In this document: piece after piece, positions 806 through 51,851 of the stretch
Numbering within the stretch: position 1 is the first letter of the stretch
How the letters are laid out: each line of letters opens with the position of its first letter
Notes under the pieces: model-generated
Databases searched by the model: none
What the model saw: the letters and a program-made list of their open reading frames with translations, nothing else
What the model was told of the DNA's origin: nothing
Origin: Bacillota bacterium
GTDB lineage: Bacteria > Bacillota > Limnochordia > Darwinibacteriales > DTU012
Direction of reading: 5' to 3'
Length of the DNA: 64,000 nt
Assembly (NCBI GenBank): GCA_012840925.1
Contig: DUVS01000045.1
Coordinates: forward strand, 23,716-87,715
Position numbers and translations under genes: made by a program

Positions 806-821
806 AATTATAGTGTTTGAA

Positions 822-2983: not shown

Positions 2984-3011
2984 GCTAACTAGTCATCGAG
3001 GAGGTACAGTA

Positions 3012-20688: not shown

Positions 20689-20922
20689 TTTGCTTAAGTC
20701 ATTTGCTGAACATATTTTACAACAGCACAGTTTGCCCTGTCAAGCAAGGACTTTTTGGATTAGGAAGGTGGTCAGGTCTTTGACCACCTTCAGATATTGA
20801 TCAGAGAATCAGTCATAATGTCGAGCCGGGGAGGGGGAGGAATATCAATCGATTAGTCAAAAGATCTGAAGTGGGTGCATATAACTCTAAAAAAGATCGA
20901 AATCATGTTGAGGAGGGGCAAT

Positions 20923-24430: not shown

Positions 24431-25600
24431 TTATGGCATCTGCCAGGAACCTTTGAGTACAGCCCGGGAGTGGTATCCGGCATTATCTTCTTGGTGTCGG
24501 TCGTTGACTACATAACCGAGTTCCAAATCAAATGATAAGTGTAGTTTTGTAAAAGGTTTGTCGAAACCTAGCTTGATACCGTAGGTTTTTTCCGGTGTGA
24601 CCGGGGGAACTTGTCCAATCCAAGGGGCAACATCCGTGTTGCCCAGTTTTTGATAAAACACTCCGATTCTCGCTTCCGCATCAAATTTTGGCAGATGCTT
24701 GGAGAACCGGACATCACCTGCGGTTAAATCATCGCCAAGGACATGCCCCAGGGATTGATTGCCATAGGCAAAGATGTTCTGCGGCAGTCCGTTAGAGTAG
24801 GCCTGATCGCTGACATGGCACAACTCCACGAGCAAGTCCCATCCTGCGATCAATGTTTCCGATTCAAGCCCGAGGGTAATGGCATAAAGCTTAGGATTTG
24901 TCTCGGTAGGCGCCATGGGAAACTCATTGACCAGAAGCTCTCCATAAAGCTTTAAACGGGGCAGCTGTAATGTGCCGTCGCCGTAAAAGATGGCATTGTC
25001 TATGGAAGTGGCGATTCCAGGGAAATATTTGGCCAAATAGTATGGCAGAACCGGCAGTGAGTAATAGTACAAATCACCGGGAAAAGGCTGGGAGGCTACA
25101 ATCGCTTCTCCAAAGCCCAGGGTCAAATAAGGGACGGGCTGCCAGCGGATATGGTGAACTCCCAATCTCTTGTATCCGGCTTTACGGCTGAGATCTGCGT
25201 AAAGCTTGGTATAGGTCACAGAATCATAGTCAAAGGTATAACCAAGGTGGGGTAAGGCCGGGCTTGTATCCGGCATGAAGATATGATGGATCTGGGTGTC
25301 GCTAGCGCGGTCAAACTGCGGTGCCATGGCACCACCAAACACGCGGATGAAATGATTGTGATAGCTCAAGCCCAACTGCCTGACGGCAAAGGTCTGGTCG
25401 GCATTGCTTCCCATCTGCCCGGTTGTGCTGACACCCAGTTTTAAAGAGAAATTTTGGCTTAAGTCTGTCTTGACCCCAGCAATAAACTCATTAACTCCGT
25501 TTTGCATATCCCATGTCATATCGACCTTGGTTCCAGCCATTGCGGGCAGGGACAGACACAGGACTATTGTTAAGACTGAGAGAATTGTTCTGCGTAGCAT
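24431..25600 (-). CDS. secreted beta-strand-rich protein of unknown function (possible outer-membrane beta-barrel/porin-like)
   Basis: 389 aa. Signal peptide MLRRTILSVLTIVLCLSLPAMA. RBS AGGAGG before the ATG at 25600. Alternating hydrophobic patterns such as LHLSFDLELGYVVN. Only minus-strand gene in this stretch. Confidence 0.7.
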   Translation of the reverse strand: MLRRTILSVLTIVLCLSLPAMAGTKVDMTWDMQNGVNEFIAGVKTDLSQNFSLKLGVSTTGQMGSNADQTFAVRQLGLSYHNHFIRVFGGAMAPQFDRASDTQIHHIFMPDTSPALPHLGYTFDYDSVTYTKLYADLSRKAGYKRLGVHHIRWQPVPYLTLGFGEAIVASQPFPGDLYYYSLPVLPYYLAKYFPGIATSIDNAIFYGDGTLQLPRLKLYGELLVNEFPMAPTETNPKLYAITLGLESETLIAGWDLLVELCHVSDQAYSNGLPQNIFAYGNQSLGHVLGDDLTAGDVRFSKHLPKFDAEARIGVFYQKLGNTDVAPWIGQVPPVTPEKTYGIKLGFDKPFTKLHLSFDLELGYVVNDRHQEDNAGYHSRAVLKGSWQMP

Positions 25601-25987: not shown

Positions 25988-27670
25988 ATGAGTGATTACT
26001 TACAAAAGTACAATCAGTGGCTTAGTGCGCCCTATATTGACAGTCAAACCAAAGCCGAACTGGCTGTTGCCAATGAACTTGCCGATATAGAAGACCGGTT
26101 TTACAAGGATCTGGAGTTTGGCACCGGCGGTCTAAGGGGCATCATGGGAGCTGGCACCAACCGGGTTAACAAATATACTATCCGTAAAGCCTCTTATGGT
26201 TTGGCCAAATACATATTGGCCAACTTTGGTGATGAAGGCAAAGTTAAAGGCATTGTCATTGCCTATGATTCAAGGAATCACTCGCCTTTGTTTGCCAAAG
26301 AAGCAGCTCAGGTGTTCTGTGCAGCAGGCATCAAGACGTTTTTATTTGACGAGATTCAGCCCACTCCGATGTTGTCCTTTGCGGTACGCTACCTTAGGTG
26401 CATCGCTGGAGTAGTGGTCACGGCCAGCCACAATCCTAAGGAATACAACGGCTATAAAGTTTATAATCAGCATGGATGCCAGCTTGTTCCCAGAGAAGCA
26501 GATCAGGTAATCGAATTTGTCAAACAAGTCAAAGACATAGCTGCCATTCCGGTTTTGGATGAAGATGCCGCCAGGGAAAAGGGCTTGTTGGCCAGTGTCG
26601 GGGAAGAAGTCCTCAAAGCATACCTGGAGGCTGTTTATGCCCAATCGCTGTGCCCTGACGCTGAAGCTAAGGCTGAACTGAGAATCGTATTTACACCACT
26701 GCACGGGACCGGCTTTGTGCCGGTAAGCTCAATTTTGGCCCGGGATGGATTTACAAACGTACTTGTTGTTAAAGAACAACAAGAGCCTGACGGTGATTTT
26801 CCCACAGTGCATTCACCCAATCCGGAAGAAAAAGCAGCTTTGGCGTTGGGTATTGCCAAAGCTGAAACCGTTGGGGCAGATGTCGTTCTGGGCACTGATC
26901 CCGATTGTGACCGAGTTGGTGTGGCTGTAAAGCATGAACAGAAGTACATCCACTTGACAGGCAATCAAGTAGGGGCGCTGTTGGTAAAGTATGTCCTGGA
27001 ACAGAGCCGGCAGAAACTTTCACCGAAGTCCACACTGATCAAGACCATCGTTACCAATGATCTGGGTGCCCAAATTGCTCTCGATTACGGATTACATGTA
27101 GTGGATACCTTGACTGGTTTCAAATATATAGGGGATAAAATAACCGAATTTGAGCAGACCGGAGCTAATGAGTTTGTGATCGGCTATGAGGAGAGCTATG
27201 GATATTTGGTTGGCACGCATGTGCGGGATAAAGATGCAGTTGTGTCATCGATGTTAATCTGTGAAATGGCCGCTTTTCACCGCAAGCGGGGAAAGACACT
27301 GGTCGATGCTCTTAATGAGTTGTATCAGGAATATGGATTCTACTTAGATCATTTGGATTCGTTCGTGCTGAAAGGGATCAACGGCAGCACCCAGATTGCC
27401 AAGATCATGGCAACCTTGCGTGCAGAGGGTAAAAGACTATTGCCGGACGTTGCACAGGTAATTGATTACAGCAAAGGAGTTCACGATCTTCCCAAGTCAG
27501 ATGTATTGAAATTCATCCAGCAGGATGGTTCCTGGATAGCTATCAGACCGTCAGGGACTGAGCCGAAGCTCAAAGTCTATTACTCGATCAGGCAACCGCA
27601 GGAGAATTTGGCGAAGGAAAAGTTGACTTATATCCGCGGTATCATGGATGATACGATTACGGAATCCTAA
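25988..27670 (+). CDS. phosphoglucomutase/phosphomannomutase family protein (alpha-D-phosphohexomutase)
   Basis: Active-site TASHNPKEYNGYK, metal-binding DPDCDRVGV and GTGGLRG motifs. 560 aa. Confidence 0.9.
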   Translation: MSDYLQKYNQWLSAPYIDSQTKAELAVANELADIEDRFYKDLEFGTGGLRGIMGAGTNRVNKYTIRKASYGLAKYILANFGDEGKVKGIVIAYDSRNHSPLFAKEAAQVFCAAGIKTFLFDEIQPTPMLSFAVRYLRCIAGVVVTASHNPKEYNGYKVYNQHGCQLVPREADQVIEFVKQVKDIAAIPVLDEDAAREKGLLASVGEEVLKAYLEAVYAQSLCPDAEAKAELRIVFTPLHGTGFVPVSSILARDGFTNVLVVKEQQEPDGDFPTVHSPNPEEKAALALGIAKAETVGADVVLGTDPDCDRVGVAVKHEQKYIHLTGNQVGALLVKYVLEQSRQKLSPKSTLIKTIVTNDLGAQIALDYGLHVVDTLTGFKYIGDKITEFEQTGANEFVIGYEESYGYLVGTHVRDKDAVVSSMLICEMAAFHRKRGKTLVDALNELYQEYGFYLDHLDSFVLKGINGSTQIAKIMATLRAEGKRLLPDVAQVIDYSKGVHDLPKSDVLKFIQQDGSWIAIRPSGTEPKLKVYYSIRQPQENLAKEKLTYIRGIMDDTITES

Positions 27671-27947: not shown

Positions 27948-29288
27948 ATGAGCGGCAGCAATATTAGATTCGAAAGTTTGGAAGCAGACGTTATTGTGGT
28001 GGGAGCAGGGCCGTCTGGAGTTCCGGCAGCGCTGGCTGCTGCCCGCAATGGTGCGAAGGTGATCTTGTTGGAAGAGGATGCTGTGCCCGGGGGAGCCCCT
28101 GTGGACATGTATGTAGCCATGATTTGCGGAGGCCCGCGCCGGGGGATTTACAGCGAAATCATCAACTATCTTAATGAAAATCATACTCTCGATCGTCAGC
28201 CGATCATTCCATTCAATAACGGCGAAGATGGCTGCAACCATTGGTATCTGCCCTATGCGTATGCTGATGCGATCATGCATTTCATCAACCAGGAGCCTAA
28301 CATTACGTTGATTACAAATGCCAAGGTAGTTGGGCTGATCACCGCAAACGACGAAATCACCGGCGCTGAGAACAGCCTCACCACGGTTGCCGGCGTTTTG
28401 GTTGAGAATTCGCCGGGAACTCAGCCTTTAGAAATCCGGGCTAAGGTCACAATTGACGCAACTGGAACAGGCATCTTGGGTGAAATGGCAGGGTGCGATG
28501 TCCGTTATGGGGCAGACACAAAGGCAGACTTCGGCGAGGAGTTCGCCCCTGAAGAGAAAGACAACGTTGTAATGCCGTGCACATTGATGTACATCACCCA
28601 AAGGCTGCAGGCGGGGCCAATGCCTGATAAAGACGAACTAAAGCGCGGAGGGTTTGTCGAAGACAAACTGAATCGATGGGCTTCAGCTGCCTATGACCAG
28701 GCTTTGCAGAACAACAGAGGTATCTACCTGCATTGGGGAGCGACCGTTGCGTGTGAAGATACGCGGGATTCAATCGCATTGGGGAAAGCTTACTTGCAGG
28801 CATTGGAAATGATCAAGCATAATGCGCGAGTTTGGTACAACCACGGTTTTACAGTACATATAGCCCCCAAGATTGGTGTCCGGGAATGCCGCCGTGTGAT
28901 CGGTGATTACGTCCTGACCATCTACGATATGCTGGATGGCACGTATCACCACGATACTATTGCCCTGAGTTCATATGGTTTGGATACATGGGGTTCAACC
29001 AAAGTTGGTGATAAAGAGTTGAATAAACTGGTCAAGCCCTATGGCATACCTTACCGGGCCCTTATCCCTAAGAACACGGAAGGCCTGCTTATTGCTGGTA
29101 AATCCATTAGTGGGAGCAGATTTGTATGCAGTTCATACCGGGTTCAACCGATCGTGGCCCAAATCGGAGAGGCAGCTGGAGCCGCTGCGGCTTTGGCAGT
29201 CAAAGCCGGCCAGGGGCTTCGCAGTGTGAATATCACCAAGCTGCAGAGTATCTTGAACATAGACGAATCCCAGTTACCGAGGAAGTGA
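27948..29288 (+). CDS. FAD-dependent oxidoreductase (FAD_oxidored/pfam12831-like)
   Basis: DVIVVGAGPSGVPAALAAARNGAKVILLEE dinucleotide-binding motif. 446 aa. Paralogous to the C-terminal half of 45215..48709. Confidence 0.8.
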   Translation: MSGSNIRFESLEADVIVVGAGPSGVPAALAAARNGAKVILLEEDAVPGGAPVDMYVAMICGGPRRGIYSEIINYLNENHTLDRQPIIPFNNGEDGCNHWYLPYAYADAIMHFINQEPNITLITNAKVVGLITANDEITGAENSLTTVAGVLVENSPGTQPLEIRAKVTIDATGTGILGEMAGCDVRYGADTKADFGEEFAPEEKDNVVMPCTLMYITQRLQAGPMPDKDELKRGGFVEDKLNRWASAAYDQALQNNRGIYLHWGATVACEDTRDSIALGKAYLQALEMIKHNARVWYNHGFTVHIAPKIGVRECRRVIGDYVLTIYDMLDGTYHHDTIALSSYGLDTWGSTKVGDKELNKLVKPYGIPYRALIPKNTEGLLIAGKSISGSRFVCSSYRVQPIVAQIGEAAGAAAALAVKAGQGLRSVNITKLQSILNIDESQLPRK

Positions 29289-29335: not shown

Positions 29336-31423
29336 GTGAGATTGATGAAAAATACTGCAGCAGCCACCATTATCTGCTTGGGATTGCTGGCCTGCATAGG
29401 TGGTATCGCTGCAGCTCCTTATCAAGGGTATATTTACAACTCCAGGAATGAGGCTGTTCATGCTCCCCAGGCATACCTTCCGGTGGAAGTGGTTGACGGT
29501 GAAGCCTTGGGCGTTGGCCCGTTCAAGGAACCGCGTGATCTTGCGGTTGGTAGCGACAGCAGGATCTATGTAGCGGATACAGGCAACAATCGCATTGTCT
29601 GCCTTGATGACAATGGGAACGCACCCAAGATCATTGCTCAATTTGAGGCTGACGGCAAACCTGATCAGCTGCGGGCCCCCACCGGTGTGTTTGTGACTGC
29701 GACAGGGGAATTGTACGTTGCAGATCGAGATAATGGCCGTATTATCCAGTTTGATGCTGATGGGAAGTTTATGCGGGAGATTGGTGCTCCCGATCTGATG
29801 TCCAATGCTTCAACTACCAACGATACGAGCTTCAGGTACAAACCTGCAAAAGTGGCGGTCGATCCCCTGGGCAGAATTTATGTGATTGCTGATGGTGTCT
29901 ATGACGGAATAATGGAGTTTGACAAAGATGGTACATTTAAGGGGTATGTAGGAGCTCCAAGGGTAAGGCCTACTTTATCGGAGATTTTCTGGCGCAGATT
30001 TGCCACTGAGGAGCAGAGACAGGCGATGGCGCTGTTTCTACCTGTGGAGTACCTCAGCATAGATGCGGATCAATATGGGTACGTGTTTGCGGTTGAAGCG
30101 GGAGATGCTCACGAAACTTCTATTAAAAAGCTGGTTCCAGGCGGCAGGGACGTTTTGACTAGGAATGGCTACGCACCGCCCAAGGGTGATTTGCTTGGAG
30201 AACGGTCCAAATTTGTGGATATCAAGGCGAGGGAAAATGGTATCTACAGTGTATTGGATCGAACTCGGGGGCGGGTATTTACATACGATAGCAACGGCTA
30301 TTTGTTATATATCTTTGGTACTTTGGGTGAAGCGTTTGGAGCTTTCAAACTGCCTGTGGCCCTGGAAGTGGTGAACGATGACATCCTGGTGCTTGATCTT
30401 GGTACCAACTCAATCACTCGGTTTCAACCAACGGCTTATGCTCAACTGATCCATACCGCCATTGACTGTTATGAACGCGGTGACTTGGCGGAATCAGTCC
30501 GGATTTGGGAACAAGTATTGCGCCTCAACGCTAATCTAGACTTCGCTTATCTATCCGTGGGGCGCTCCTACCTGACTCAAGGAAAATACCAGGAAGCAAT
30601 GGCTTACTCTAGGTTGGGCGACAATCGCGACTTGTTTTCAAAAGCCTTTAGTTATTACCGCAAAAGCGTAGTAGAGCAGTTTTTCAGTGTCTTTGCATTG
30701 GCGATCGCCGTAATTGTATTCCTGGCCAACAGGATTATGGCCCGGTCTGCACGAGCGGGTAAGCAAAGACACCTGGAGGAAGCGAGGCCTGAAGGTCTAG
30801 AACGGATTATCAGCCCGCTCAAATATGCCTTCCATGTTATCTTTCATCCGTTTGACGGATTTTGGGATTTAAAGCATGAACAACGGGGCACTGCTGGCGC
30901 TGCCACAGTAATCCTGGCATTGGTGATTGCCACCTATGTATTTATGAGACAGTATACTGGTTATCTATTTAACGCACGAGATGTTTCCAAAATGAACATC
31001 TACATGGATATCAGCAGCGTAGTGGTGCCATTTTTGTTGTGGTGCCTCGTCAATTGGGCATTGACCACGCTGATGGATGGCAAAGGGACCCTCAAAGAAA
31101 TCTACATTGCATCTGCATATGCCCTGGCACCGGTGGTCCTGATCAATGTGCCCATGACAGTGATCAGCAACTATTTGACGTTAAACGAAGGCTCATTCCT
31201 TTATTTGATGATCTCAATAAGTGTGATCTGGTCCGCTTTTCTGCTGTTTTCCGGAACAATGGTGCTGCACGAGTACGATGTGGCCAAGACAGTGCTGACT
31301 TCCATCCTGATTGTGATCGGGATCGGCAGCATCTTGTTTCTTGGACTGATTTTCCTGGATGTGATCAACTTGTTGTTAGGTTTTGTCACGACCATATACG
31401 CCGAGCTTGTCTTTAGGGTTTAG
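29336..31423 (+). CDS. NHL-repeat / TPR / Yip1-domain membrane protein
   Basis: Signal peptide, then NHL-type blades (RIYVADTGNNRIVCLD, ELYVADRDNGRIIQFD), a TPR-like segment, then a C-terminal 5-6 TM Yip1-like domain. The start (GTG 29336 or ATG 29345) is uncertain. Confidence 0.7.
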   Translation: MRLMKNTAAATIICLGLLACIGGIAAAPYQGYIYNSRNEAVHAPQAYLPVEVVDGEALGVGPFKEPRDLAVGSDSRIYVADTGNNRIVCLDDNGNAPKIIAQFEADGKPDQLRAPTGVFVTATGELYVADRDNGRIIQFDADGKFMREIGAPDLMSNASTTNDTSFRYKPAKVAVDPLGRIYVIADGVYDGIMEFDKDGTFKGYVGAPRVRPTLSEIFWRRFATEEQRQAMALFLPVEYLSIDADQYGYVFAVEAGDAHETSIKKLVPGGRDVLTRNGYAPPKGDLLGERSKFVDIKARENGIYSVLDRTRGRVFTYDSNGYLLYIFGTLGEAFGAFKLPVALEVVNDDILVLDLGTNSITRFQPTAYAQLIHTAIDCYERGDLAESVRIWEQVLRLNANLDFAYLSVGRSYLTQGKYQEAMAYSRLGDNRDLFSKAFSYYRKSVVEQFFSVFALAIAVIVFLANRIMARSARAGKQRHLEEARPEGLERIISPLKYAFHVIFHPFDGFWDLKHEQRGTAGAATVILALVIATYVFMRQYTGYLFNARDVSKMNIYMDISSVVVPFLLWCLVNWALTTLMDGKGTLKEIYIASAYALAPVVLINVPMTVISNYLTLNEGSFLYLMISISVIWSAFLLFSGTMVLHEYDVAKTVLTSILIVIGIGSILFLGLIFLDVINLLLGFVTTIYAELVFRV

Positions 31424-31440
31424 GAAAGAGGTTGGTTATT

Positions 31441-34437
31441 TTGCGAGAACACAGACTCATCAGCCTATTGGCTTTGGCAATCCTCATTGCGATCAGCTGC
31501 AGTTATTCAGCATTGGCTGCTGAGATCAGTTCTGACTTCTTACTGGCAGCTGAAAATGAGTATTTAGGTTTATATATCAACCACAATACCACCGAAATAG
31601 CGGTTCATGTCAAATCCGGGGATACGGTGTGGTATTCCAATCCCAAAGATAGAGAAACGCTGGAGAATGTCGGCGGATCTACGATAAAACAAGAGTTGAG
31701 CTCGCAGTTTTCATTTGCATATAGTGACGGGCGTTACACACTTAACAACTATGTAGATTCAGTACAGCATGAACAGTACGAAATCATTCCAATTGCCGAT
31801 GGTGTGCGGATCGAATACACCGTGGGCAAAAGGTATAATACGGAACACATCGTACCTCCAATGATCAGGCAAGAGCGGTTTGAAAGGATCATCCTGGACA
31901 GTATTGCAGATGCCAAGGACCGGCAGAGAGTTCAGGATGCCTATATCCTGGTGTCACTGGAAAAAACCGAAGGCTCTGAGCGGATTGCTCTGCCTGGCCT
32001 GGATATGGATCGGCTGTTTGGCGACTACCGCCTGGTATTTCATGATCCTGCTTTTCAAAACCTTGAGGAGGAGATTCGAGAACTAAACGCCCGAATTGCC
32101 GCTTTGACAGCTTCGGTCGTCACAGATCAAACTGAACTCAACAATTTAGTTCGACAGCGGGACAATGCCCAAAACAGGCTGGTGCGGGATACACAGACCA
32201 TGGCCAATCATTTTCTGGAGTTAATCCGCGATTACCGGGCAGATGTGGAGAGAGTGGCTGATCTCTCTTTCACTGATCTGAGCCAGCTTGTGGAAACGCC
32301 CACGTATGTCATCAGGCGGATTGCCGGTTTTCTCCAGCGTGAGCTGCAGCGAATCATTGACGCATCGGATTATACCTTTGAAGCTGCCCGTGATGATTGC
32401 TGGGCTAACAACCTTGACCGGCCGGCATACAATACACATGTCTTCTTCGTTCCGATGGAATACTTGTTGGACGGGCCCAATCTGGTGGTTCGGGTCCCAG
32501 TCAGTGAGATCGTGTACCCACAGCCCTTGTCAGCACAGCAGCGCCAGCAGTTGATCGAGGAGAAATCAAAACTGGTGGATCAGCTGCTGGATTTGAACAA
32601 TCAACTCAACCGGCATATCAAAGACACCAAGGATGGCCTGACAACGCTTGTTGATCGGAAATATCAGGCGCTAGCTGCGCAAATTGCCGAAATTACACGG
32701 GAAATAACTGAATTTGAGGAAGCCCATCAGCAAGTGCGGCCAAACCTTCCCATCCTGACATTCACCTTACTGCCTTACTTTGGAGCAGCATATCTGGATC
32801 AGGAAGGTTACATTTTCGTACCTGATGGATCTGGTGCGTTGATCTACCTTAACAACGGTAAAACTACCTCGTCGATTTACAGCCAGACGATTTACGGTGA
32901 TGACTTGTCATTCGGCCCGAGAGAGATGCCGCTGATCCGTACCTTGAACCACCTTCCTGTCTTTGGATTGAAGCAGGGCGATCAGGCATTCCTGGCAATC
33001 ATCGAAGAGGGCGAGGCACTGGCGCGCATTCAAGCAGATGTTGCAGGCAAGCTTCATTCATATAACGTTGTCTATCCCCAATTCACCCTCCGCCCTTCTG
33101 TAATGTCGATAGTGCGCCGTTATCAGTCACGGCTTTACCAGGGAGATATCCGGGTCCGCTATTCATTTCTTGATGGACAAGCCGCTAACTACGTGGGCAT
33201 GGCTCATGCCTATCAGGATTACCTTAAAGAGCAATTTGAGCTGAAACCATTGTCTAGGCAAGAGGACATTCCGTTTTTCCTGGATCTGATTGGAGCAACT
33301 ATTGTAAACAGACCAATTCTAGGTATTTCCCGGAAAGTGACTGTCCCTCTTACCACTTATCAGCAGGCAGAACAGATTCTGACAGCCCTGGAGTCCCTTG
33401 GCATCGAGGCTGTGTTGCTGCGGTACTTAGGATGCCTGCAAGATGGGCTCAAGCATGTGTACCCTAAAGACATTCGTTTGGAAAAGGTGTTGGGAACGCA
33501 GGCTGAGCTGGAAGCTCTCGCTGAAAGACTGGGAACTGCCGGGGGACGGTTGTATTTGGGAGTCGATTTCGTCAATGTATACCCTAAGACTCTCTATCAA
33601 GGTTTTCGCCCAGCCAGAGACGCTGCCCGATTGTTAGACGGGCTGCTGGCCAAGAACTACAGGTATAACGCTGCCACAGGCCAACCCGATCCGGACGATT
33701 ACCGCTTTATCCTGTCACCAAGGGCGCTTGGGCCGTTGGTTGACAGCTTCTTTACCAGTCTGCATGCTCGCCAGATATATGGTATTGCACCATTGGAAAT
33801 GGGCCTGCAGGTGAACTCAGATTTCCGGAGTTCTCCAGAACAGACAGTTGATCGCCAACAAGCTGTCCATATCTTGACGGAACAGCTGCGGAAAATGACA
33901 GCAGACTATGATACCGACTTGATCATTGAAGGAGCCAATGCTTATGCGCTGCCATATACGAATGCCATCGTCCAGATGCCCATGGACAGTACAAACTACA
34001 ATATCGTCGACCAAACTGTCCCGTTTTACCAAATCGTTCTGCATGGATTTGTAGATTATACCGGTAAACCCATCAACTTGGCAGGGGACGATCCACTTTA
34101 CAGGCTGAAATTGCTGGAAACCGGCGCACTGCCGTACTACCAGTGGTCTTATGCCAATTCAATGGAAATCAAAGGTACCGATTCTGAATACCTCTATTCT
34201 CTGCACTATGGAGATTGGTTGGCAGACGCTGCAGACTTCCATGCAGTGGCCAACGAAGTGTTGAGTTTGGTGCGCGTTGAACGGATTGTTGATCATCAGC
34301 AAGTGGCGGGCAATGTCTACAAGACAGTTTATGAGAACGGAGCCGCGATTATTGTCAACTACAATCAAGTACCGGTTGAGGTTGATGGTTTGCCGGTTGC
34401 AGCACTGGGTTTCCGGTTAGTATGGGGGAATTATTAA
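31441..34437 (+). CDS. large secreted DUF5696-like protein with central coiled coil
   Basis: About 1000 aa. SPI-type signal peptide (SALA/AE). Long heptad-rich region (LEEEIRELNARIAALTA...). TTG start chosen for RBS spacing. The partner of Yip1 proteins in ABC-transporter cassettes is recalled from memory and was not searched. Confidence 0.6.
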   Translation: MREHRLISLLALAILIAISCSYSALAAEISSDFLLAAENEYLGLYINHNTTEIAVHVKSGDTVWYSNPKDRETLENVGGSTIKQELSSQFSFAYSDGRYTLNNYVDSVQHEQYEIIPIADGVRIEYTVGKRYNTEHIVPPMIRQERFERIILDSIADAKDRQRVQDAYILVSLEKTEGSERIALPGLDMDRLFGDYRLVFHDPAFQNLEEEIRELNARIAALTASVVTDQTELNNLVRQRDNAQNRLVRDTQTMANHFLELIRDYRADVERVADLSFTDLSQLVETPTYVIRRIAGFLQRELQRIIDASDYTFEAARDDCWANNLDRPAYNTHVFFVPMEYLLDGPNLVVRVPVSEIVYPQPLSAQQRQQLIEEKSKLVDQLLDLNNQLNRHIKDTKDGLTTLVDRKYQALAAQIAEITREITEFEEAHQQVRPNLPILTFTLLPYFGAAYLDQEGYIFVPDGSGALIYLNNGKTTSSIYSQTIYGDDLSFGPREMPLIRTLNHLPVFGLKQGDQAFLAIIEEGEALARIQADVAGKLHSYNVVYPQFTLRPSVMSIVRRYQSRLYQGDIRVRYSFLDGQAANYVGMAHAYQDYLKEQFELKPLSRQEDIPFFLDLIGATIVNRPILGISRKVTVPLTTYQQAEQILTALESLGIEAVLLRYLGCLQDGLKHVYPKDIRLEKVLGTQAELEALAERLGTAGGRLYLGVDFVNVYPKTLYQGFRPARDAARLLDGLLAKNYRYNAATGQPDPDDYRFILSPRALGPLVDSFFTSLHARQIYGIAPLEMGLQVNSDFRSSPEQTVDRQQAVHILTEQLRKMTADYDTDLIIEGANAYALPYTNAIVQMPMDSTNYNIVDQTVPFYQIVLHGFVDYTGKPINLAGDDPLYRLKLLETGALPYYQWSYANSMEIKGTDSEYLYSLHYGDWLADAADFHAVANEVLSLVRVERIVDHQQVAGNVYKTVYENGAAIIVNYNQVPVEVDGLPVAALGFRLVWGNY

Positions 34438-35342
34438 TGAAACACAAACGACGTTTTCTGACAATGAAAGGGCGCAAGTATCTGACCGGATTCATGTTCG
34501 TGTCGCCTTTTGTGATTGGTTTTATCTGTTTCTTTCTATATCCGTTTATCCAGTCGATTGTGTTCAGTTTCAATCAACTCGAGATCACATCCACCGGCTA
34601 TGTCCTGCATTATGTCGGCTTTGCCAACTACCATAATCTATTGTTTGTGCATCCCAACTTTCGTATTGCCTATGTTGATACGCTGATCCAGATGCTTTCG
34701 AGAGTTCCTGCCATACTCATTTTCAGTTTCTTCGCAGCTAACATGCTCAACCAAAAGTTTAGGGGGCGCACTCTTGCCCGAGTGGTATTCTTCCTGCCGG
34801 TAATCATGGGGGCACAGGCTGTATTGGCGCTGCAGAGCACCGACCATATGCAAAAAGCTATGAGTTATTCCAAGATTGGAGCAGAGCTCGGCATGTTTTC
34901 CGGCAGTGAGCTCAGGAACTACCTGCTTGAGCTGCAGCTGCCGGAGGGCCTGCTTAACTATGTTTTCAACGCAGCGGATAGTGTGCCGCAGATTATCAAC
35001 AGTTCTGGCATACCAATTCTAATCATCTTGGCGGCCCTGCAGTCTATTCCGAGCTCAATCTTTGAAGCAGCGAGCATTGAGGGTGCCACGAGGTGGGAGT
35101 GTTTCTGGAAAATCACTTTTCCCATGATCTTGCCCATGATTATGGCTAGTGTGGTTTACACGATTGTTGAATCATTCACTTCTCCCTACAACCAACTGGT
35201 AAACCTGATTAAGACAACTACTTGGCAAGGGTCGGGGTTTGGTGTTAGTGCCGCAATGAGCTGGTTTTACTTTATGACTATCGCAGTAGTTCTGGCTGTT
35301 GTAATGTGCATCATGTCCAAATCGTCGCAAAGCCAGTCGTAG
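34437..35342 (+). CDS. carbohydrate ABC transporter permease (MalF/UgpA-like, CUT1)
   Basis: Six-TM binding-protein-dependent permease with an EAA-like loop (SIEGATRWECFWKITFP). ATG overlaps the upstream stop (TAATG). Confidence 0.85.
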   Translation: MKHKRRFLTMKGRKYLTGFMFVSPFVIGFICFFLYPFIQSIVFSFNQLEITSTGYVLHYVGFANYHNLLFVHPNFRIAYVDTLIQMLSRVPAILIFSFFAANMLNQKFRGRTLARVVFFLPVIMGAQAVLALQSTDHMQKAMSYSKIGAELGMFSGSELRNYLLELQLPEGLLNYVFNAADSVPQIINSSGIPILIILAALQSIPSSIFEAASIEGATRWECFWKITFPMILPMIMASVVYTIVESFTSPYNQLVNLIKTTTWQGSGFGVSAAMSWFYFMTIAVVLAVVMCIMSKSSQSQS

Positions 35343-35359
35343 GAGGAGGTAAAAACCAG

Positions 35360-36268
35360 GTGCGAAAACATGTGCGCTTATCAAAGGTACTAGCCGGCTG
35401 CGGAAGCCTTTTCCGAACTGTAATGATTGTCGGCATTGGATTCGTGATCTTGTACCCACTGCTGGTGCAGATTTCCTCTGCATTTATGGCACCGGGAGAT
35501 TTGAACGATCCTACCGTGCATTGGATTCCAAAGCACACAACCCTGGACAACTTCGGCAAGGCTGTTGAAGTTTTGAAATATGACCGCGCTGTTAGGAATA
35601 CGCTGCTGTTATCGTTGACAGTAAGCTTGGTGCAGTTGATTTCATGTACGTTTATCGGATATGGATTTGCCAGGTATAAGTTTCCCGGCAGTCGTCTTCT
35701 GTTTGGGTTGGTCCTTCTAACATTGATTGTGCCGCCGCAAATGATCATGGTTCCGTTGTTCCTGAATTTCCGCTTTTTCAACCTGTTTGGCTTGTTGGGA
35801 AACGGGATTAATCTACTGGGTTCTTTCTGGCCATATCTTATGATGGGAATCACGGGCACCGGGATCAAAAACGCTCTGTTTATCTACATAACACGGCAGT
35901 ATTTTGCAGGGATGTCAGAGAGCCTGGAAGAAGCTGCCTACATTGATGGCGCTGGTTCGATTCGCACCTTTTTCAAGGTCATGCTGCCGAACGCAGTGCC
36001 AGTGTTGGTTGTTGTCTTTTTGTTTTCGTTTGTGTGGGTTTGGAATGACATGTTTTATGCACAGATGTTTCTAACGGGAACTGACAATCTGGCGCTGGCT
36101 ATTGCGGATCTGCCGCTCTTGACGAGGTATCTGTATGGCGATCATGAGCGCAATACACTGATCCATAATGCAGCGACTTTGCTTTATATAGCACCAATGC
36201 TTTTGTTATATACCGTCTTGCAGAGATTCTTTATTGAAAGTGTTGAAAAAACGGGTCTGGTTGGCTGA
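35360..36268 (+). CDS. carbohydrate ABC transporter permease (MalG/UgpE-like, CUT1)
   Basis: Permease with EAAYIDGAGSIRTFFKVMLP signature. GTG start 10 nt after GGAGGAGG. Confidence 0.85.
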   Translation: MRKHVRLSKVLAGCGSLFRTVMIVGIGFVILYPLLVQISSAFMAPGDLNDPTVHWIPKHTTLDNFGKAVEVLKYDRAVRNTLLLSLTVSLVQLISCTFIGYGFARYKFPGSRLLFGLVLLTLIVPPQMIMVPLFLNFRFFNLFGLLGNGINLLGSFWPYLMMGITGTGIKNALFIYITRQYFAGMSESLEEAAYIDGAGSIRTFFKVMLPNAVPVLVVVFLFSFVWVWNDMFYAQMFLTGTDNLALAIADLPLLTRYLYGDHERNTLIHNAATLLYIAPMLLLYTVLQRFFIESVEKTGLVG

Positions 36269-36365
36269 TCAACCAGGCATGAAGGGGGGTGGCCGATCGG
36301 GAGTGACGAGTCGTCAAAAAGGATGGATATGCAGATCAGATCAAGTCGACAAAGGAGGAAAAGAC

Positions 36366-37676
36366 ATGAAGAGAAGATTTGTTGTTATGCTTACAGTTGC
36401 TTTACTGCTGATTATTTTATCGGCAAACGTCTACGGCAGTTGGCGTGAGGTTCCGGATCTGGGTGGCCGGACTGTGACAATCGCCACATACAACGTACAC
36501 CTCATCGATAACTACTTTAATGATGGCCTGGGCCGTGGACGGTTAGAGATGGTTGAAGAGATGTTCAACTGCAACATTGAATTCTATGAACTGACCTGGG
36601 AAGGTGCCATTGATACAATCATGGCCAGCCACATGGCAGGAGATCCAGTTGGTGATATTTATTCATTCCCAAATCACTGGATGGTGGAGCTTGCCTCACA
36701 GGGAGCCTTGCTGCCGCTAGACGGCATTTTGGATGATGAGTACTATGCCAGCCTGCCTGGAATGCATTCCCGGATGCGGGAGCTTTACTCTACATTTCAA
36801 GGTAAAGCTTATGGCTTCTCCACAAACGATGAACTAGAGCGCGACAACGATGTCCGTTCAGGCCATGTGATGTATTGGAACAAGGACATGTTCGCCGCTG
36901 AAGGCCAGCCTGACTTGTACGAACTGATGCAAAACGGTGAGTGGACATGGGATAAGATGCTGGAGATCGCCAAAGCTCTGACCAAGGACAAAGATGGTGA
37001 TGGTGAGATCGACCAATGGGGCCTAGATATCCGCTGGGGAGCTGCTGATTTTGTCCAGATTTTGGTATTAACCAACAGCGGCAGTTACATTGCCGATATC
37101 GACGGTAAAATGACGTTTACCGGCAACGATGACAAAGTACTGGAAGCAATTCAGTTCTTGCACGATTTGATTTATGTTCACAAAGTTGTGGGTCCAACTA
37201 ATTCATTTGGAAAAGGCCAGGCAGCTATGGGCCGCTTTGCCTTCGCCAACATGAACGCCAAACTATCTTTTGAACGCGGTGTAGCCTACTGGCCAATGGG
37301 ACCGCAGGCAGATAGCCATGTCTTGCCACTTTGGGGACCGCGTCTGGCTGCTTTGCCTGCTGGGGTCGAGAATCCAGCAGCAATGATTGCCATTGTCAAC
37401 GCACTGTTTGAAGTGACCAGTGATTACCGTGATCTTGCCGCATATGAAGAAGAGATTCTGGAAAGGTACCTGCCTTACTTCCATGATTTTGAGTCGTATG
37501 AAGTGATGGCCGAGATGATCAACAACGGTGTGATGACAATGGTGCTGCCGGGAACCGAAGAAATAGGCTGGGCAGATGCACTCAACAGCGCCATCGAGGG
37601 GAATACGAGCCCCAAGGCTGCAATGGATGCCATCGCTCCTGCGATGCAGCGCTTGATAGACGAAATTTATAACTAA
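36366..37676 (+). CDS. extracellular solute-binding protein (family 1), no lipobox cysteine
   Basis: 436 aa. Signal peptide LLLIILSANVYG without Cys. Paralog of the fragment at 1..732. RBS AAAGGAGG. Confidence 0.85.
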   Translation: MKRRFVVMLTVALLLIILSANVYGSWREVPDLGGRTVTIATYNVHLIDNYFNDGLGRGRLEMVEEMFNCNIEFYELTWEGAIDTIMASHMAGDPVGDIYSFPNHWMVELASQGALLPLDGILDDEYYASLPGMHSRMRELYSTFQGKAYGFSTNDELERDNDVRSGHVMYWNKDMFAAEGQPDLYELMQNGEWTWDKMLEIAKALTKDKDGDGEIDQWGLDIRWGAADFVQILVLTNSGSYIADIDGKMTFTGNDDKVLEAIQFLHDLIYVHKVVGPTNSFGKGQAAMGRFAFANMNAKLSFERGVAYWPMGPQADSHVLPLWGPRLAALPAGVENPAAMIAIVNALFEVTSDYRDLAAYEEEILERYLPYFHDFESYEVMAEMINNGVMTMVLPGTEEIGWADALNSAIEGNTSPKAAMDAIAPAMQRLIDEIYN

Positions 37677-37729: not shown

Positions 37730-39376
37730 ATGGAAAACTTGATTCACAGAGTACAAATCATGCCGCGCATTCCAAGCCCATTTACAATGCGCAACTGGAA
37801 AGAAGTTGCCCGAGGGTACGATGCTCTGGTTTTCAATTCTGAACTGCAGGGCAAATATCTGCCGCTGATCTCGTGGGAGCGCAAGCAGCCAAACTTCCTG
37901 ATTAGCACTTTCCGTTTACCGTCGTATGTCGGGCAGGCGGCAAAAGGTGAGGCGATCAATCAGTTAGCGGCAGTTGCCGGCAGTTCCCTTGTAGGGATTG
38001 ACAAATCTGATCAAGACGGCCACAACTGGGTGCTGATGGCCAGCCAGTACTACAATCATCAGACGCAGTTGATCAGCAACAATATGGCCGGCGGGAGAAA
38101 AAGCGGAGGTTCATTCTGGTATCAGATACTTCCCAGCATCCTGTTTTACCAGCTTGTGTCCCTGTATCCTCAGACAGCTCAAGAACAGATCCCGCTCAGT
38201 GACGGGTCCAGGTCTATGTGTATGGATGAAATGATGTACCTTAACGCGGAACGCTTCTGTCAGGCAGCTGAGGTGATGGGTTCAGGGCCAGATGCCTATT
38301 TGTGGACAAGCTTTGATTTCGAAAGTATGGAACCTGCTTTTAATGGCATATGGAGAGAACCGGACGCTGCAGCAGGCATAGCTTGGTTAGAGTACATGGC
38401 TTATGTGAAGTTCGGCTGTGCAAAATTCTTACACGCTGCCGAGCTGGCATTGAGATCATTGGAAAGCATGACCTGCAATCCTTTGTACGAGTTGTTGTTG
38501 ATTTACGGGACTTATCTTGCTGCTCGGATCAACGCTGAGTTAGGGCGCAGCTACGATCTAAACAAGTTAATCAACTGGTGTTTTGATCCATCGGATGCCC
38601 GTGTTGGCTGGGGTCGGCCCGATTGGGGCATCATTGCCGAGAATTGGGCAGGCCTTGATGCCTACGGATTGCAGGGGAGTGTCACTGACAGTGGAGGCTA
38701 TGCCTTTGCGATGAACACGTATCAATGGGCGGGAATCCTGATTCCATTAGCCCGGTATGATCAGAGCTACGGGCGCCAAATCGGCAAATGGATTCTCAAT
38801 CTGGCCAATAATGCACGCCTGTTTTACAGCATCCATCACTTGCCGCAGCACCAGTCAAACAGCGTTTGGGATGCGGATCCCAACAGCTATATCGCTTACG
38901 AAGGGCTCCGCAAACAAGGCCCGGTTACAGCTCCGGTAGAGAAGCAAGTCAGCCCGTATGCCACAGGCGATGCTATGCGCAACAATTGGGCCCCCACCAA
39001 TTACTGCCTGTACGGTTCATCGCATGTAGGATATTTGGCAGCGCCGATCGGATTTACCGATGATCCAAGAATCCTGCAGCTGGATCTCTGTGTAACTGAT
39101 TTCTTTGGTGATCAGGCTTATCCAACATATCTTTACTACAACCCATATGATGTGGCTAAAAGGGTGATTGTCGATGTTGGTACAGATCCAGTTGGCCTGT
39201 ATGATACAGTCAGTCACTCCTTCCTGGCCAGGCGGGCATCGGGCGAGACGATGGTGACAATTCCTCCGGATCAGGCAGTGATCCTGGTACTGGTGCCTTC
39301 AGGCGCAAAAATGGATGTGCAAAATAACAAGCTAGTATACGATGGCGTGGTTGTAGACTATCATTGGGCTGAGTGA
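37730..39376 (+). CDS. conserved protein of unknown function, cytoplasmic paralog (candidate new CAZyme family)
   Basis: 548 aa, no signal peptide. Strongly collinear with the N-terminal about 540 aa of 42764..45166 (blocks MPRIPSPFTMRNWKEVARGYDAL, SLVGIDKSDQDGHNWVLM, GGSFWY, NPLYELLLIYGTYLAARINAELG, YPTYLYYNPYD). Confidence 0.7.
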   Translation: MENLIHRVQIMPRIPSPFTMRNWKEVARGYDALVFNSELQGKYLPLISWERKQPNFLISTFRLPSYVGQAAKGEAINQLAAVAGSSLVGIDKSDQDGHNWVLMASQYYNHQTQLISNNMAGGRKSGGSFWYQILPSILFYQLVSLYPQTAQEQIPLSDGSRSMCMDEMMYLNAERFCQAAEVMGSGPDAYLWTSFDFESMEPAFNGIWREPDAAAGIAWLEYMAYVKFGCAKFLHAAELALRSLESMTCNPLYELLLIYGTYLAARINAELGRSYDLNKLINWCFDPSDARVGWGRPDWGIIAENWAGLDAYGLQGSVTDSGGYAFAMNTYQWAGILIPLARYDQSYGRQIGKWILNLANNARLFYSIHHLPQHQSNSVWDADPNSYIAYEGLRKQGPVTAPVEKQVSPYATGDAMRNNWAPTNYCLYGSSHVGYLAAPIGFTDDPRILQLDLCVTDFFGDQAYPTYLYYNPYDVAKRVIVDVGTDPVGLYDTVSHSFLARRASGETMVTIPPDQAVILVLVPSGAKMDVQNNKLVYDGVVVDYHWAE

Positions 39377-39403
39377 TTCACAGATATTGATAGGAGGCGA
39401 CAG

Positions 39404-40375
39404 ATGTTAACAGCAAATGTCCAGCCAGTAAGTGCAAAGGATTTATATCATCAGTTCAAATCAAATCAGCAGGTGAAGTGTGCAGAGTTTCTTCAGGTTA
39501 AAGGTTTGGAAGGGTTCGACGTATACAATCCTTCGGTTCCCTTCATGTCCCATGGGGAATGGGTGATCGCAGGGCGTGTCGAGCGGCGTGATTCGGAGGA
39601 CTCGACTGTAGTCTTTTTCCGTGAGGAAGGCGGCGCACTGTCCCCGATTGCCGATGCGCCCCGGTTTTCTCTGCAGGATCCTTTTGTGACAATGATCGAT
39701 GGTCAGATTGTCTTCGGCGGGGTAAGGGTGATTTGGGAAAACGATCGTATCGTGAGTTGGGTGACAGATTTTTACCGTGGGAGCTCTATCTATGATCTCA
39801 AGTACTTTGCCACGGGCCCAGATCATATGAAAGACATCCGCCTGCTTGGCCTGGCAGATGGCAGGATAGCAGTCCTGACGCGGCCTTTAGGTGAGGCAGT
39901 GTTTGAGGCATATGGGTGCATTGCCATGATCGGTTTTGTCGTGATCGAAAGTCTGGATCAGCTTTCACCTGAGGTGATCGCCAATGCTCCTGTGCTGCAT
40001 GGTCATTTTCTTCCCCGCGAGTGGGGAGGTGCCAATCAACTGCATCTGCTGAAGAACGGATTGATTGGAGTTATAGGTCACATCGCCTATTGGGAACATC
40101 TTGAGAACGATGATCATGTGAGACATTATTACAGCTCTGCATTTGCCCTTGATCCTGAGACTAGACATATGACTGCTACCAAAGTAATCTGTTCTCGCGA
40201 TTGCTTCCCTCCGGGCGATGCCAAACGTCCCGATTTGAGAGATGTTACTTTTACTGCAGGTATCGTACGCCAGAACGGTGGTACGGCTGAGATTTACACA
40301 GGGTTGAACGACTGTCAGATCGGGCGAGCAGTGATCCCTGATCCGTTCACAGAGTATGAACAGTTAGTGCGGTAG
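39404..40375 (+). CDS. DUF1861-like beta-propeller protein (GH130/GH43-like fold)
   Basis: 323 aa, no signal peptide. My recollection of the DUF1861 family pattern. Adjacent to GH130. Confidence 0.5.
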   Translation: MLTANVQPVSAKDLYHQFKSNQQVKCAEFLQVKGLEGFDVYNPSVPFMSHGEWVIAGRVERRDSEDSTVVFFREEGGALSPIADAPRFSLQDPFVTMIDGQIVFGGVRVIWENDRIVSWVTDFYRGSSIYDLKYFATGPDHMKDIRLLGLADGRIAVLTRPLGEAVFEAYGCIAMIGFVVIESLDQLSPEVIANAPVLHGHFLPREWGGANQLHLLKNGLIGVIGHIAYWEHLENDDHVRHYYSSAFALDPETRHMTATKVICSRDCFPPGDAKRPDLRDVTFTAGIVRQNGGTAEIYTGLNDCQIGRAVIPDPFTEYEQLVR

Positions 40376-40519
40376 GGGGCAGGGTGGTGCATAGGGCTTG
40401 TATTGTCACTAATAACCACTTTACTTCCAAATAGGAGTAACCATGAGAGATGTGATTGGAGAACGAGCCAAGGTTAGGTTTCTGCCAAGTAATGTTCCAG
40501 GTGTGAAGGAGGGTGGTTA

Positions 40520-41434
40520 ATGTTTAGACTGGAGCGCATATCGAATTCGCCTGTTTTGGAGCCGCGCCGGGAGAATCAGTGGGAACAGGGTGCGGTGTTT
40601 AATACTGCCGTTGTCTATAAGGATGGGTACTTCCATTTGTTGTACCGGGCGAGTGATCGGGATTTCGAAGCTTTGAGAGATGAATGTCCAAAGGCTGAGA
40701 AAAAATTCTGTTCTGTGATCGGCTTGGCCAAAAGCCGGGATGGAATCAATTTTGAGAGGAACTCCAAGCCTCTATTTGTAGGCCAGGGAGTTCAGGAAGC
40801 GTGGGGCGTGGAGGATCCGAGAGTAACAAAGATCGGTGACACCTACTATATGGTTTATACAAGCTTCGGAGGGAGGAGTTGGAATGATCACCGGATCAGC
40901 CTGGCCAGTTCAAAAAACCTTGTCGATTGGCGGCGTCATGGCGTGCTGTTGGATGAGGTAAACAAAGACGGCGGCCTCCTCGCTGACAAAATCAACGGGA
41001 AGTATGTCTTGTTTCACCGGCGCGAACCAAATATCTGGGTTGCCTTTTCCGATGACCTGAAGATCTGGTATGACCATCAGATCGTCATGACAACTCTGCC
41101 TAACGGCTGGGAAACTAAGAAAATTGGTATTGCCGGTGAGCCAATTTTGATCGAACAGGGATATCTGATGATCTACCATGCGGTTGATGATCGGCATGTG
41201 TACCGTTTAGGTGCTGCACTACTGGATCGCAGTGATCCAACTAAGGTCCTTGCCAGGCTGCCTGAACCGATTCTAGAGCCGGAACTTGCCTGGGAGCGGA
41301 CAGGCAATGTGCCAAACGTGGTGTTCAGCTGTGGACAGGCTGTCTATGATGGCTACCTGTATGTGTACTACGGTGCGGCTGATACCGTAATCGGAGCCGC
41401 CAGAGTGGCTTTGGATCAGATTACCTTTAAGTAA
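40520..41434 (+). CDS. GH130 family protein (beta-mannoside phosphorylase/hydrolase, DUF377)
   Basis: NTAVVYKDGYFHLLYRA...VIGLAKSRDGINFER...GVEDPRVTKIGDTYYMVYT blocks are typical of GH130. Short (304 aa) form. Confidence 0.8.
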   Translation: MFRLERISNSPVLEPRRENQWEQGAVFNTAVVYKDGYFHLLYRASDRDFEALRDECPKAEKKFCSVIGLAKSRDGINFERNSKPLFVGQGVQEAWGVEDPRVTKIGDTYYMVYTSFGGRSWNDHRISLASSKNLVDWRRHGVLLDEVNKDGGLLADKINGKYVLFHRREPNIWVAFSDDLKIWYDHQIVMTTLPNGWETKKIGIAGEPILIEQGYLMIYHAVDDRHVYRLGAALLDRSDPTKVLARLPEPILEPELAWERTGNVPNVVFSCGQAVYDGYLYVYYGAADTVIGAARVALDQITFK

Positions 41435-45166: not shown

Positions 45167-45214
45167 CTAGACAACTCAAGCTGGCGCAGAGCATAGACCA
45201 TGGAGGTAATACAA

Positions 45215-51747: not shown

Positions 51748-51851
51748 AACCTACCGCCTCTGTATTTAGAGTAATCTCTATTGATATATGCCGTAACAAA
51801 GCTGTTTGCCCGCAGTTTTGGGCTAATCTCATCGGGAAAAGGAGGTTGAGG

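Follow-up and report, generated by a model that had tools for sequence, protein, structure and literature searches.

A conserved Bacillota gene module linking a secreted GH129-like DUF5696 protein and an NHL-TPR-Yip1 membrane protein to CUT1-type permeases

We analysed a stretch of 64,000 nucleotides (nt) from a Bacillota bacterium of the Limnochordia (assembly GCA_012840925.1, contig DUVS01000045.1, positions 23,716 to 87,715; hereafter the window). It contains five genes that encode, in order, a membrane protein with NHL, TPR-like and Yip1 parts, a large secreted protein of the DUF5696 family, two permeases (A and B) of an ATP-binding cassette (ABC) importer, and a solute-binding protein (SBP). 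These genes had been read, in what we call the original prediction, as a surface device that captures or presents glycans and feeds them to the importer. All five open reading frames (ORFs) are present at 29336-37676 and run in the same direction on the plus strand, as predicted, and the overlapping TAATG to which the prediction drew attention joins the DUF5696 and permease A genes (Table 1).

Several starts were placed 3' of those of the longest ORFs because of the ribosome-binding sites and the lengths of homologues. The longest DUF5696 ORF opens at 31432 and would encode 1001 amino acids (aa); the likely start is the TTG at 31441, which has the ribosome-binding site GAAAGAGG 9 nt on its 5' side and gives a product of 998 aa, as in an identical database protein (P0001). 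Residue numbers of DUF5696 are nevertheless counted from 31432 throughout. Permease A probably starts at 34437, permease B at a GTG (35360) and the SBP at an ATG (36366, giving 436 aa); their homologues measure 301, 302 and 437 aa, respectively. With these starts the intergenic gaps, from a flavin adenine dinucleotide (FAD) oxidoreductase gene through to the SBP gene, are 47, 17, -1, 17 and 97 nt. A promoter and terminator scan over 25.5-45.3 kb gave the same counts as shuffled controls and carries no information on operon boundaries.

Table 1. Genes and features of the module and its flanks in the window (nt, window positions; residues, positions in the respective protein).
Feature	Position (nt)	Residues	Strand	Basis or remark
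PGM/PMM-family mutase (phosphomannomutase), upstream of the module	25988-27670			Pfam
PF12831 FAD-dependent oxidoreductase, first operon gene in this lineage, outside the conserved core	27948-29288		+	Pfam
NHL-TPR-Yip1 membrane protein, 695 aa	29336-31423		+	Pfam, AF2 model
Signal/anchor helix of NHL-TPR-Yip1		2-24	+	Model
Six-bladed NHL beta-propeller	29426-30430	31-365	+	Pfam, model
Two TPR-like hairpins	30434-30616	367-427	+	Model
Long stalk helix into transmembrane segment		431-473	+	Model
Yip1 bundle of long helices		about 486-694	+	Pfam, model
Motif HPFDGFWDLKHE, predicted cytoplasmic		504-515	+	Conservation map
DUF5696 secreted protein, 998 aa	31441-34437		+	GH129-like three-domain fold
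Helical hairpin insertion 1, N-terminal beta-sandwich	32041-32241	204-270	+	Helices 206-227, 233-268
Helical hairpin insertion 2	32521-32739	364-436	+	Helices 368-398, 404-430; pLDDT 56-79
(beta/alpha)8-barrel of DUF5696	33358-34263	about 643-944	+	Model secondary structure
TAATG: DUF5696 stop TAA and permease A start ATG, one base in common	34435-34439		+	Read from sequence
ABC permease A, 301 aa, MalF/UgpA-like, EAA loop EAASIEGATRWECFWKITFPMI	34437-35342		+	Pfam BPD_transp_1
ABC permease B, 302 aa, MalG/UgpE-like, EAA loop EEAAYIDGAGSIRTFFKVMLP	35360-36268		+	Pfam BPD_transp_1, 63.6 bits
SBP, 436 aa	36366-37676		+	Pfam SBP_bac_1, SBP_bac_8
Lineage-specific downstream genes (next three rows)	37730-41434		+	Pfam, same order in relative
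548-aa protein, directly after SBP	37730-39376		+	No Pfam, NCBIfam or PDB sequence match
DUF1861 phosphorylase-like	39404-40375		+	Leishmania MPT-4 mannoside phosphorylase (PDB), 1.9e-66
GH130 beta-1,2-mannobiose phosphorylase-like	40520-41434		+	PDB beta-1,2-mannobiose phosphorylase, 4e-119

The linkage of these genes extends far beyond the window. When one genome per species was scanned for the motif VPDG[SC]GALI, at least 590 stretches were confirmed; the 80 best loci were then examined by searching their six-frame ORFs with the window proteins. In 80 of 80 loci, all from Bacillota and as far as the contigs permit, NHL/Yip1 lies directly upstream of DUF5696, and the genes for permeases A and B follow directly downstream. 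The NHL and Yip1 parts are fused in 44 loci and split into two adjacent genes in 31. Apparent exceptions were mostly contig ends, besides two parsing artefacts and one locus, L046, where a 263-aa ORF (274-1065) separates a recognisable Yip1 C-terminus from DUF5696, the only such insertion. Converse lookups that started from two NHL-Yip1 proteins led to the same result, both adjoining DUF5696 and permeases, so that the co-occurrence of Yip1, DUF5696 and CUT1 permeases asserted by the original prediction was found in both directions. The loci come from Paenibacillus, Cohnella, Saccharibacillus, Lederbergia, Halalkalibacter, Gracilibacillus, Limnochordia, Halanaerobiales, Tissierellaceae and many uncultured Bacillota, and DUF5696 is present in most sampled Paenibacillus genomes as well as in many Bacillota from anaerobic digesters and sediments. 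The core of the module is NHL-TPR-Yip1, DUF5696, permease A and permease B, with an SBP gene either downstream, as in the window, or upstream. Our literature searches returned no mention of DUF5696 and no description of a module in which a Yip1/NHL protein accompanies sugar permeases, and no NCBIfam model names either protein, in agreement with the earlier statement that no function has been assigned.

The module is also duplicated as a whole. Of the genomes behind the 80 loci, at least ten carry two to five modules each, and no paralogous module shares its NHL-Yip1, DUF5696 or permease pair with another. Within genomes the paralogues share 32-43% identity in DUF5696, 42-55% in NHL-Yip1 and 47-57% in the permeases, i.e. 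the components diverged in parallel, DUF5696 the most. Since each module keeps its own partners and these have diverged together, they appear to be cognate, interacting partners of diversified specificity and not a shared generic helper. Median identity to the window proteins across loci is 32% for the SBP, 38% for DUF5696, 41-42% for NHL/Yip1 and 41-45% for the permeases. We considered locating the substrate-reading part through a conservation gap between components, and rejected the approach since these cross-locus differences are small; we relied on the comparison of paralogues within genomes instead.

The product of the first gene was modelled with AlphaFold2 (AF2) at a pLDDT of 88.3. Pfam recognises NHL (65.1 bits, cut-off 20) and Yip1 (PF04893; 57.6 bits, cut-off 28.6) in it; TPR_2 scores 19.4 bits, under its cut-off of 27, the model has two helical hairpins at residues 367-427, and precomputed TPR matches exist in Pfam for many NHL-Yip1 homologues. 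The NHL, Yip1, DUF5696, CUT1 permease and SBP domains named in the original prediction were therefore all borne out by Pfam, with TPR_2 remaining sub-threshold. Behind the transmembrane segment follow a poorly conserved loop and then two conserved helices that bear the almost invariant motif HPFDGFWDLKHE just ahead of the Yip1 bundle. By the positive-inside rule the propeller and TPR region would be extracellular and the motif cytoplasmic, and we regard HPFDGFWDLKHE as a candidate contact site for the transporter or the ATPase. Conservation is even over the propeller, the TPR region, the cytoplasmic helices and the Yip1 bundle. Foldseek matched the model to the NHL propellers of TRIM71, Brat and PknD (E 5e-19, target-normalised TM-score about 0.8), that is, to generic NHL propellers only, and this fold search gave no functional lead for the Yip1 part. 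The fusion of NHL and TPR parts to Yip1, which had been thought unusual, is the standard form in this system, and proteins with this architecture are numerous, forming over 865 clusters at 90% identity. Both extracellular proteins, NHL-TPR-Yip1 and DUF5696, carry N-terminal signal sequences.

These features could be taken to mean that DUF5696 is an ordinary free secreted glycosidase and the NHL-Yip1 protein a modulator or sensor of the transporter, the propeller sensing a ligand outside while the cytoplasmic motif acts on the permeases or the ATPase, or else that the propeller has an enzymatic activity of its own, as a lactonase or lyase. NHL propellers do act as extracellular sensor domains, e.g. 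in PknD, the high conservation of HPFDGFWDLKHE would suit such signalling, most DUF5696 signal peptides are cleavable and not anchors, and there is a marginal Pfam match to the lactonase-like SGL family (27.2 bits against a cut-off of 26.3). However, the SGL match spans only two NHL-like blades, neither Pfam nor the model reveals a recognisable output domain in NHL-Yip1, and each paralogous module retains its own NHL-Yip1 beside its own DUF5696. We consider this explanation rather improbable.

With 606.7 bits (cut-off 25.6, E 6.7e-182), the second gene belongs to Pfam DUF5696 (PF18952), as do all 45 aligned homologues; the match covers residues 436-994, and the first 435 residues match no Pfam family. 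A model based on an alignment of 45 sequences reached a pLDDT of 89.3 and a pTM of 0.81, and consists of a signal helix, an N-terminal beta-sandwich domain (N-domain) with two helical hairpins, a barrel and a C-terminal beta-sandwich. With this model the two solved glycoside hydrolase (GH) family 129 enzymes ranked on top in a Foldseek search of the PDB, namely the 3,6-anhydro-D-galactosidase ZgGH129 (E 3.6e-28, TM-score 0.71) and the alpha-N-acetylgalactosaminidase NagBb (E 1.7e-23), followed at lower rank by GH101, GH36, GH31 and GH13. The DUF5696 family profile also found both among PDB sequences (ZgGH129 1.4e-7, NagBb 1.5e-4); identity to these enzymes is 16% or less. The structures concerned are PDB 5wzn for NagBb and 5opq and 8rzk for ZgGH129, GH101 being more distant. 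Signal peptides are present in 45 of the 45 DUF5696 proteins, and the family is large, with 4068 clusters at 50% identity (E <= 1e-30).

Profile comparisons point the same way. Two GH129-like alignments were built from metagenome loci, and hhalign matched DUF5696 to them with probabilities of 98% (E 1.7e-12) and 99.6% (E 2e-22). A tblastn search of metagenomes with a 133-aa ZgGH129 fragment retrieved GH129-like genes together with a true DUF5696 protein (L112, hmmsearch 4e-189), whereas a protein-database search with the same fragment gave no match. Six of the metagenome loci (L106-L111) encode GH129-like proteins of 649-1052 aa with the motifs YLDV...PPDE...HPxxR and SSEExxDWxIP. This group is nearer to DUF5696 than are Zobellia-type GH129 proteins (hhalign E 2e-22 vs 1.7e-12), and may form a bridge between GH129 and DUF5696.

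We conclude that DUF5696 shares its three-domain fold with GH129 and is remotely homologous to it. R808, E525 and a PxFG/PWWG motif are common to both; DUF5696 differs in that various residues occupy the place of the conserved GH129 Glu, in an invariant residue set of its own, in the helical hairpins of its N-domain, and in being encoded always between NHL-Yip1 and ABC permease genes. To our knowledge neither of the two solved GH129 enzymes is encoded in such a place. Judged by sequence, membership fails at the family level, and we file DUF5696 as a GH129-like sister family and not as GH129. The original prediction had described the second gene as a coiled-coil giant with a long heptad-repeat region, and had named proof of an ordinary known glycosidase as something that would refute it. 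What it saw as heptads maps to a pair of helical hairpins in the model (206-268 and 368-430) that Paenibacillus-type proteins lack: the segment of hairpin 1 varies from 2 to 79 residues over the 45 homologues, hairpin 2 is full length in only three of them and has 0-2 residues in the Paenibacillus type, and both are cut to 0-3 residues in Paenibacillus-type DUF5696 proteins of roughly 850 aa. Such variation marks the hairpins as lineage-specific, dispensable insertions, so that the description as a coiled-coil giant does not hold. The prediction is also refuted halfway on its own terms, the protein being glycosidase-like, but not an ordinary known glycosidase.

DUF5696 has a near-invariant set of polar residues of its own. 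In the barrel D797 is found in 44 of the 45 sequences, R808 in 45, N836 in 43, D860 in 40, N882 in 45, E896 in 43 and K914 in 43, and in the N-domain D465 in 45 and E525 in 43. R808 and E525 have conserved counterparts in the GH129-like alignments, and D797 lies 11 residues ahead of R808, the same spacing as for a conserved Asp in the more distant GH129-like group. The two near-invariant barrel Asps after beta-4 and beta-6 presumably resemble the layout of clan GH-D and GH31. Because this strongly conserved polar set has been kept, we favor an active enzyme with re-arranged catalytic residues over the decay of a pseudo-enzyme.

The transport genes are of a familiar kind. Permease A has sub-threshold NCBIfam matches to UgpA, GlcU and MalF, and permease B matches MalG (8.7e-22) and resembles UgpE; neither reaches an equivalog cut-off, and no NCBIfam model names gene 1, 2 or 5. 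A permease pair with EAA loops and a cluster-type SBP together have the makeup of a CUT1 (MalFGK2-like) importer. The closest solved relative of the SBP is an arabino-oligosaccharide-binding protein, at 1.6e-11 only. The window SBP has a signal sequence without a lipobox cysteine. We compared SBP N-termini from the window (36366-36450) and from L003, L008, L012, L013, L015, L016, L042 and L049, and found AxA-like sites and no lipobox cysteine in the module-adjacent SBPs of the window and of most loci checked of the type known from metagenome-assembled genomes, and a classical lipobox (IIGCSSGG) in a Paenibacillus SBP (L029). Some lineages with lipobox-free SBPs may have two membranes.

We hypothesize that this four-to-five-gene module of Bacillota is a surface cleave-and-import machine, and hold the chances of this to be about even. 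We infer its catalytic activity, physical complex, ectodomain roles and substrate as follows. DUF5696, as a secreted enzyme of GH129/GH101 (alpha-glycosidase) fold, would trim an extracellular glycan to transportable pieces, and the propeller/TPR ectodomain of the Yip1 protein would keep the enzyme, possibly together with the glycan, at the membrane. Through its helical bundle the Yip1 part would dock the assembly on a dedicated CUT1 permease pair, to which the cognate SBP would pass the product, and a shared ATPase encoded elsewhere would power uptake. Specificity would differ among paralogous modules, and in the window the imported sugar would be processed by two phosphorylases, GH130 and DUF1861, and by the phosphomannomutase encoded upstream. 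A precedent for docking on the permeases is YknW of Bacillus, an accessory subunit from the Yip1 family through which assembly of the ABC transporter YknXYZ is modulated (PMC4887032). The hypothesis as a whole builds on what the data show, namely the domain identities, the GH129-like fold and remote homology, the export signals, the linkage and the joint duplication of all components, and draws further support from the TAATG coupling of DUF5696 and permease A and from conserved polar residues that would form a pocket of the kind seen in enzyme families. The surface device feeding an ABC importer, as originally proposed, thus stays the best reading, with the odds evenly balanced.

The hypothesis should nevertheless be treated with some caution, since a number of observations weigh against it. 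None of the 45 DUF5696 members matches another Pfam family at E <= 1. No MsmX/MalK-like ABC ATPase gene lies at the locus, and the sole ABC_tran gene among the Pfam-scanned ORFs of the window is DrrA-like (51846-52763); it is common for CUT1 systems of Firmicutes to draw on a shared ATPase whose gene lies elsewhere. The conserved GH129 Glu, which we take to be the general acid/base (E518 of L091, corresponding by offset to E517 of ZgGH129, the two proteins being 93% identical), aligns with column 833 of DUF5696, and this column is acidic in only 20 of the 45 sequences; the window protein has E833 there, where hhalign confidence is moderate and both alignments agree. Going by the title of PDB 8rzk, D486 is the catalytic nucleophile of ZgGH129; its column falls in a low-confidence alignment of beta-4, with column 788/789 (D in 21 of 45 sequences, E789 in the window protein) or D797 as candidates. 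A split into a subfamily with all GH129-type acidic positions (789, 833, 844) and a non-catalytic one gave no clean partition. Finally, the carbohydrate-active enzymes (CAZymes) encoded nearby vary widely by locus, being of xylan, pectin or mannoside type or absent altogether, so that the context points to no single substrate of the module in general.

From these same observations it could be argued that DUF5696 is non-catalytic, and that together with NHL-Yip1 it serves as an obligate structural or receptor subunit of an unusual multi-subunit ABC importer and binds or gates a glycan above the permeases, much as the GH13-like heavy chains rBAT and 4F2hc accompany eukaryotic amino-acid transporters or as SusD acts as a lid. 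The column aligned with the GH129 acid/base and the nucleophile candidate at column 789 are not conserved, DUF5696 is strictly linked and translationally coupled to the permeases, inheritance concerns the module as a whole, and the presumed pocket remains constant while the CAZyme context changes completely. Yet pseudo-enzymes usually lose their pocket, and here nine near-invariant polar residues, two barrel Asps among them, have been retained; each module moreover has an ordinary SBP, so that an additional receptor is not obviously needed, and we know of no bacterial precedent for such a transporter subunit. We therefore think a non-catalytic DUF5696 unlikely. A bolder proposal, which we regard as possible though doubtful, is that NHL-TPR-Yip1 and DUF5696 are obligate structural subunits of an unrecognised class of ABC importer supercomplex in Bacillota, in which both would rest on the permeases and directly couple glycan binding or cleavage to translocation. 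If true, this supercomplex would correspond to SusCD, though at the cytoplasmic membrane, and have its eukaryotic parallel in the heavy chains rBAT and 4F2hc.

The surroundings of the module differ between lineages. The Paenibacillus operon comprises AraC, an SBP lipoprotein, a 995-aa SBP fusion, a permease pair, NHL-Yip1, DUF5696 and a further permease pair, with no other CAZyme gene, and in Limnochordia-type genomes (L084, L086) the five genes stand by themselves, surrounded by housekeeping genes. Elsewhere the neighbours include, depending on the locus, GH67, GH3 and GH10, or a Pel9A-like protein, esterases and GH95, or GH2, GH106, GH130 and GH65. Many loci carry an additional permease pair and an SBP fusion of roughly 1000 aa, which makes a double transporter. 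In these fusions (L029 2815-5802; also L085, L087, L089 and L090) the SBP domain occupies the C-terminal 400 residues, and the N-terminal half shows internal repeats by eye and one weak sub-threshold match to Golvesin_C; this half may be carbohydrate-binding.

Stand-alone operons raise the question of whether the module serves not to forage for nutrients but to recycle material from the envelope or matrix of the cell itself, candidates being an exopolysaccharide with alpha-linked amino sugars and a secondary cell-wall polymer. Such a role would account for the invariant pocket as well as for the stand-alone operons, some of which lie as islands among housekeeping and envelope genes (e.g. a MurJ/Polysacc_synt-type flippase gene in L084 and L086), and the closest solved relatives of DUF5696 act on alpha-N-acetylgalactosamine (alpha-GalNAc), alpha-galactosamine (alpha-GalN) or anhydro-galactose. 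However, genomes have up to five divergent paralogues, AraC, LacI and histidine kinase/response regulator (HK/RR)-AraC regulators and CAZymes for plant and fungal glycans stand beside many modules, and the window module itself sits in a large catabolic cluster. On balance envelope recycling seems very improbable to us, and cleavage and import of external glycans remains the reading that we prefer.

For the window the cargo can be narrowed down further. The window and a relative with 77% identity share the order FAD oxidoreductase, core, SBP, 548-aa protein, DUF1861, (FAD oxidoreductase) and GH130; in the relative the FAD oxidoreductase is kept directly upstream, and the genes further upstream differ. 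L081-L083 retain the 548-aa protein at this place, and in L049 a homologue comes after the SBP. GH130, DUF1861 and PGM/PMM together suggest cytoplasmic phosphorolysis of beta-1,2-manno-oligosaccharides to mannose-1-phosphate, and because GH130 and DUF1861 lie downstream and PGM/PMM upstream, the cargo is probably an oligosaccharide that contains beta-1,2-mannosides. We considered the beta-1,2-mannoside cluster of Thermoanaerobacter as the same module and rejected it, given its different ABC system, own ATPases and GH5 (PMC4264767).

Other parts of the window are described for completeness. A second PF12831 FAD-dependent oxidoreductase (45200-48709, 1169 aa) lies in the same co-directional cluster as the first; it contains an F5/8 type C domain, and the PF12831 model matches it in four stretches; in the relative with 77% identity both PF12831 oxidoreductases are kept beside the module. 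The upstream half holds a dense co-directional CAZyme cluster (971-24408) with GH42, a BT_1020-like propeller with a sialidase-like carbohydrate-binding module, two MGH1/GH63-like proteins, GH2, GH95 and a GH140 apiosidase-like protein, in addition to LacI and an FGGY kinase, a gene set that recalls the degradation of rhamnogalacturonan-II or another complex glycan. ORFs without a Pfam match are found at 2934-5732 (932 aa), 42764-45166 (800 aa) and 52763-54385 (540 aa), and further at 24431-25600 (minus strand, 389 aa), 20875-21660 (261 aa) and 41464-42045 (193 aa).

The module resembles several known systems in part. With the glycan utilisation loci of Gram-positive bacteria it has in common a secreted protein of GH fold, an SBP and a MalFG-like pair with EAA loops in one operon, as well as an ATPase encoded elsewhere and sugar-responsive regulators nearby. 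In those loci, however, the enzyme families vary freely and there is no conserved membrane accessory protein, whereas here one enzyme-like family and NHL-TPR-Yip1 are invariant over at least 80 loci and duplicate as a unit. YknWXYZ likewise has a polytopic Yip1-family protein encoded together with an ABC transporter (PMC4887032), but there the transporter, YknYZ, is an exporter of MacB type that has a membrane-fusion protein, and YknW lacks a large ectodomain, whereas the module contains a type I importer and its Yip1 domain carries a propeller-TPR ectodomain of 430 residues. The analogy to SusCD drawn in the original prediction stands as far as function goes, both being modular, paralogue-rich surface machineries that tie glycan processing to a dedicated importer. 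It does not extend to common parts: the module is a cytoplasmic-membrane ABC importer without homology to SusCD, and no gene for a TonB-dependent transporter or SusD-like lipoprotein was found among the genes of the locus or the related loci inspected. The rBAT and 4F2hc proteins are eukaryotic, GH13-like and anchored by a single pass, with SLC7 carriers as partners; they offer a lead for the view of DUF5696 as a non-catalytic subunit, and are not evidence of kinship.

In conclusion, the presented data reveal a robust and widespread gene association that is undescribed in the literature searched, and from which we infer a mechanism. A GH129-like fold wired to its own permeases and to a propeller-Yip1 protein provides a testable model for two annotations of unknown function, and DUF5696 may represent either a new family of glycoside hydrolases or a pseudo-glycosidase that has become a transporter subunit. 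Given genomes with up to five copies, the module would be a useful marker for glycan-utilisation loci in Bacillota. It also suggests that glycan uptake in Gram-positive bacteria can use dedicated accessory machinery, beyond loose collections of enzymes and transporters.

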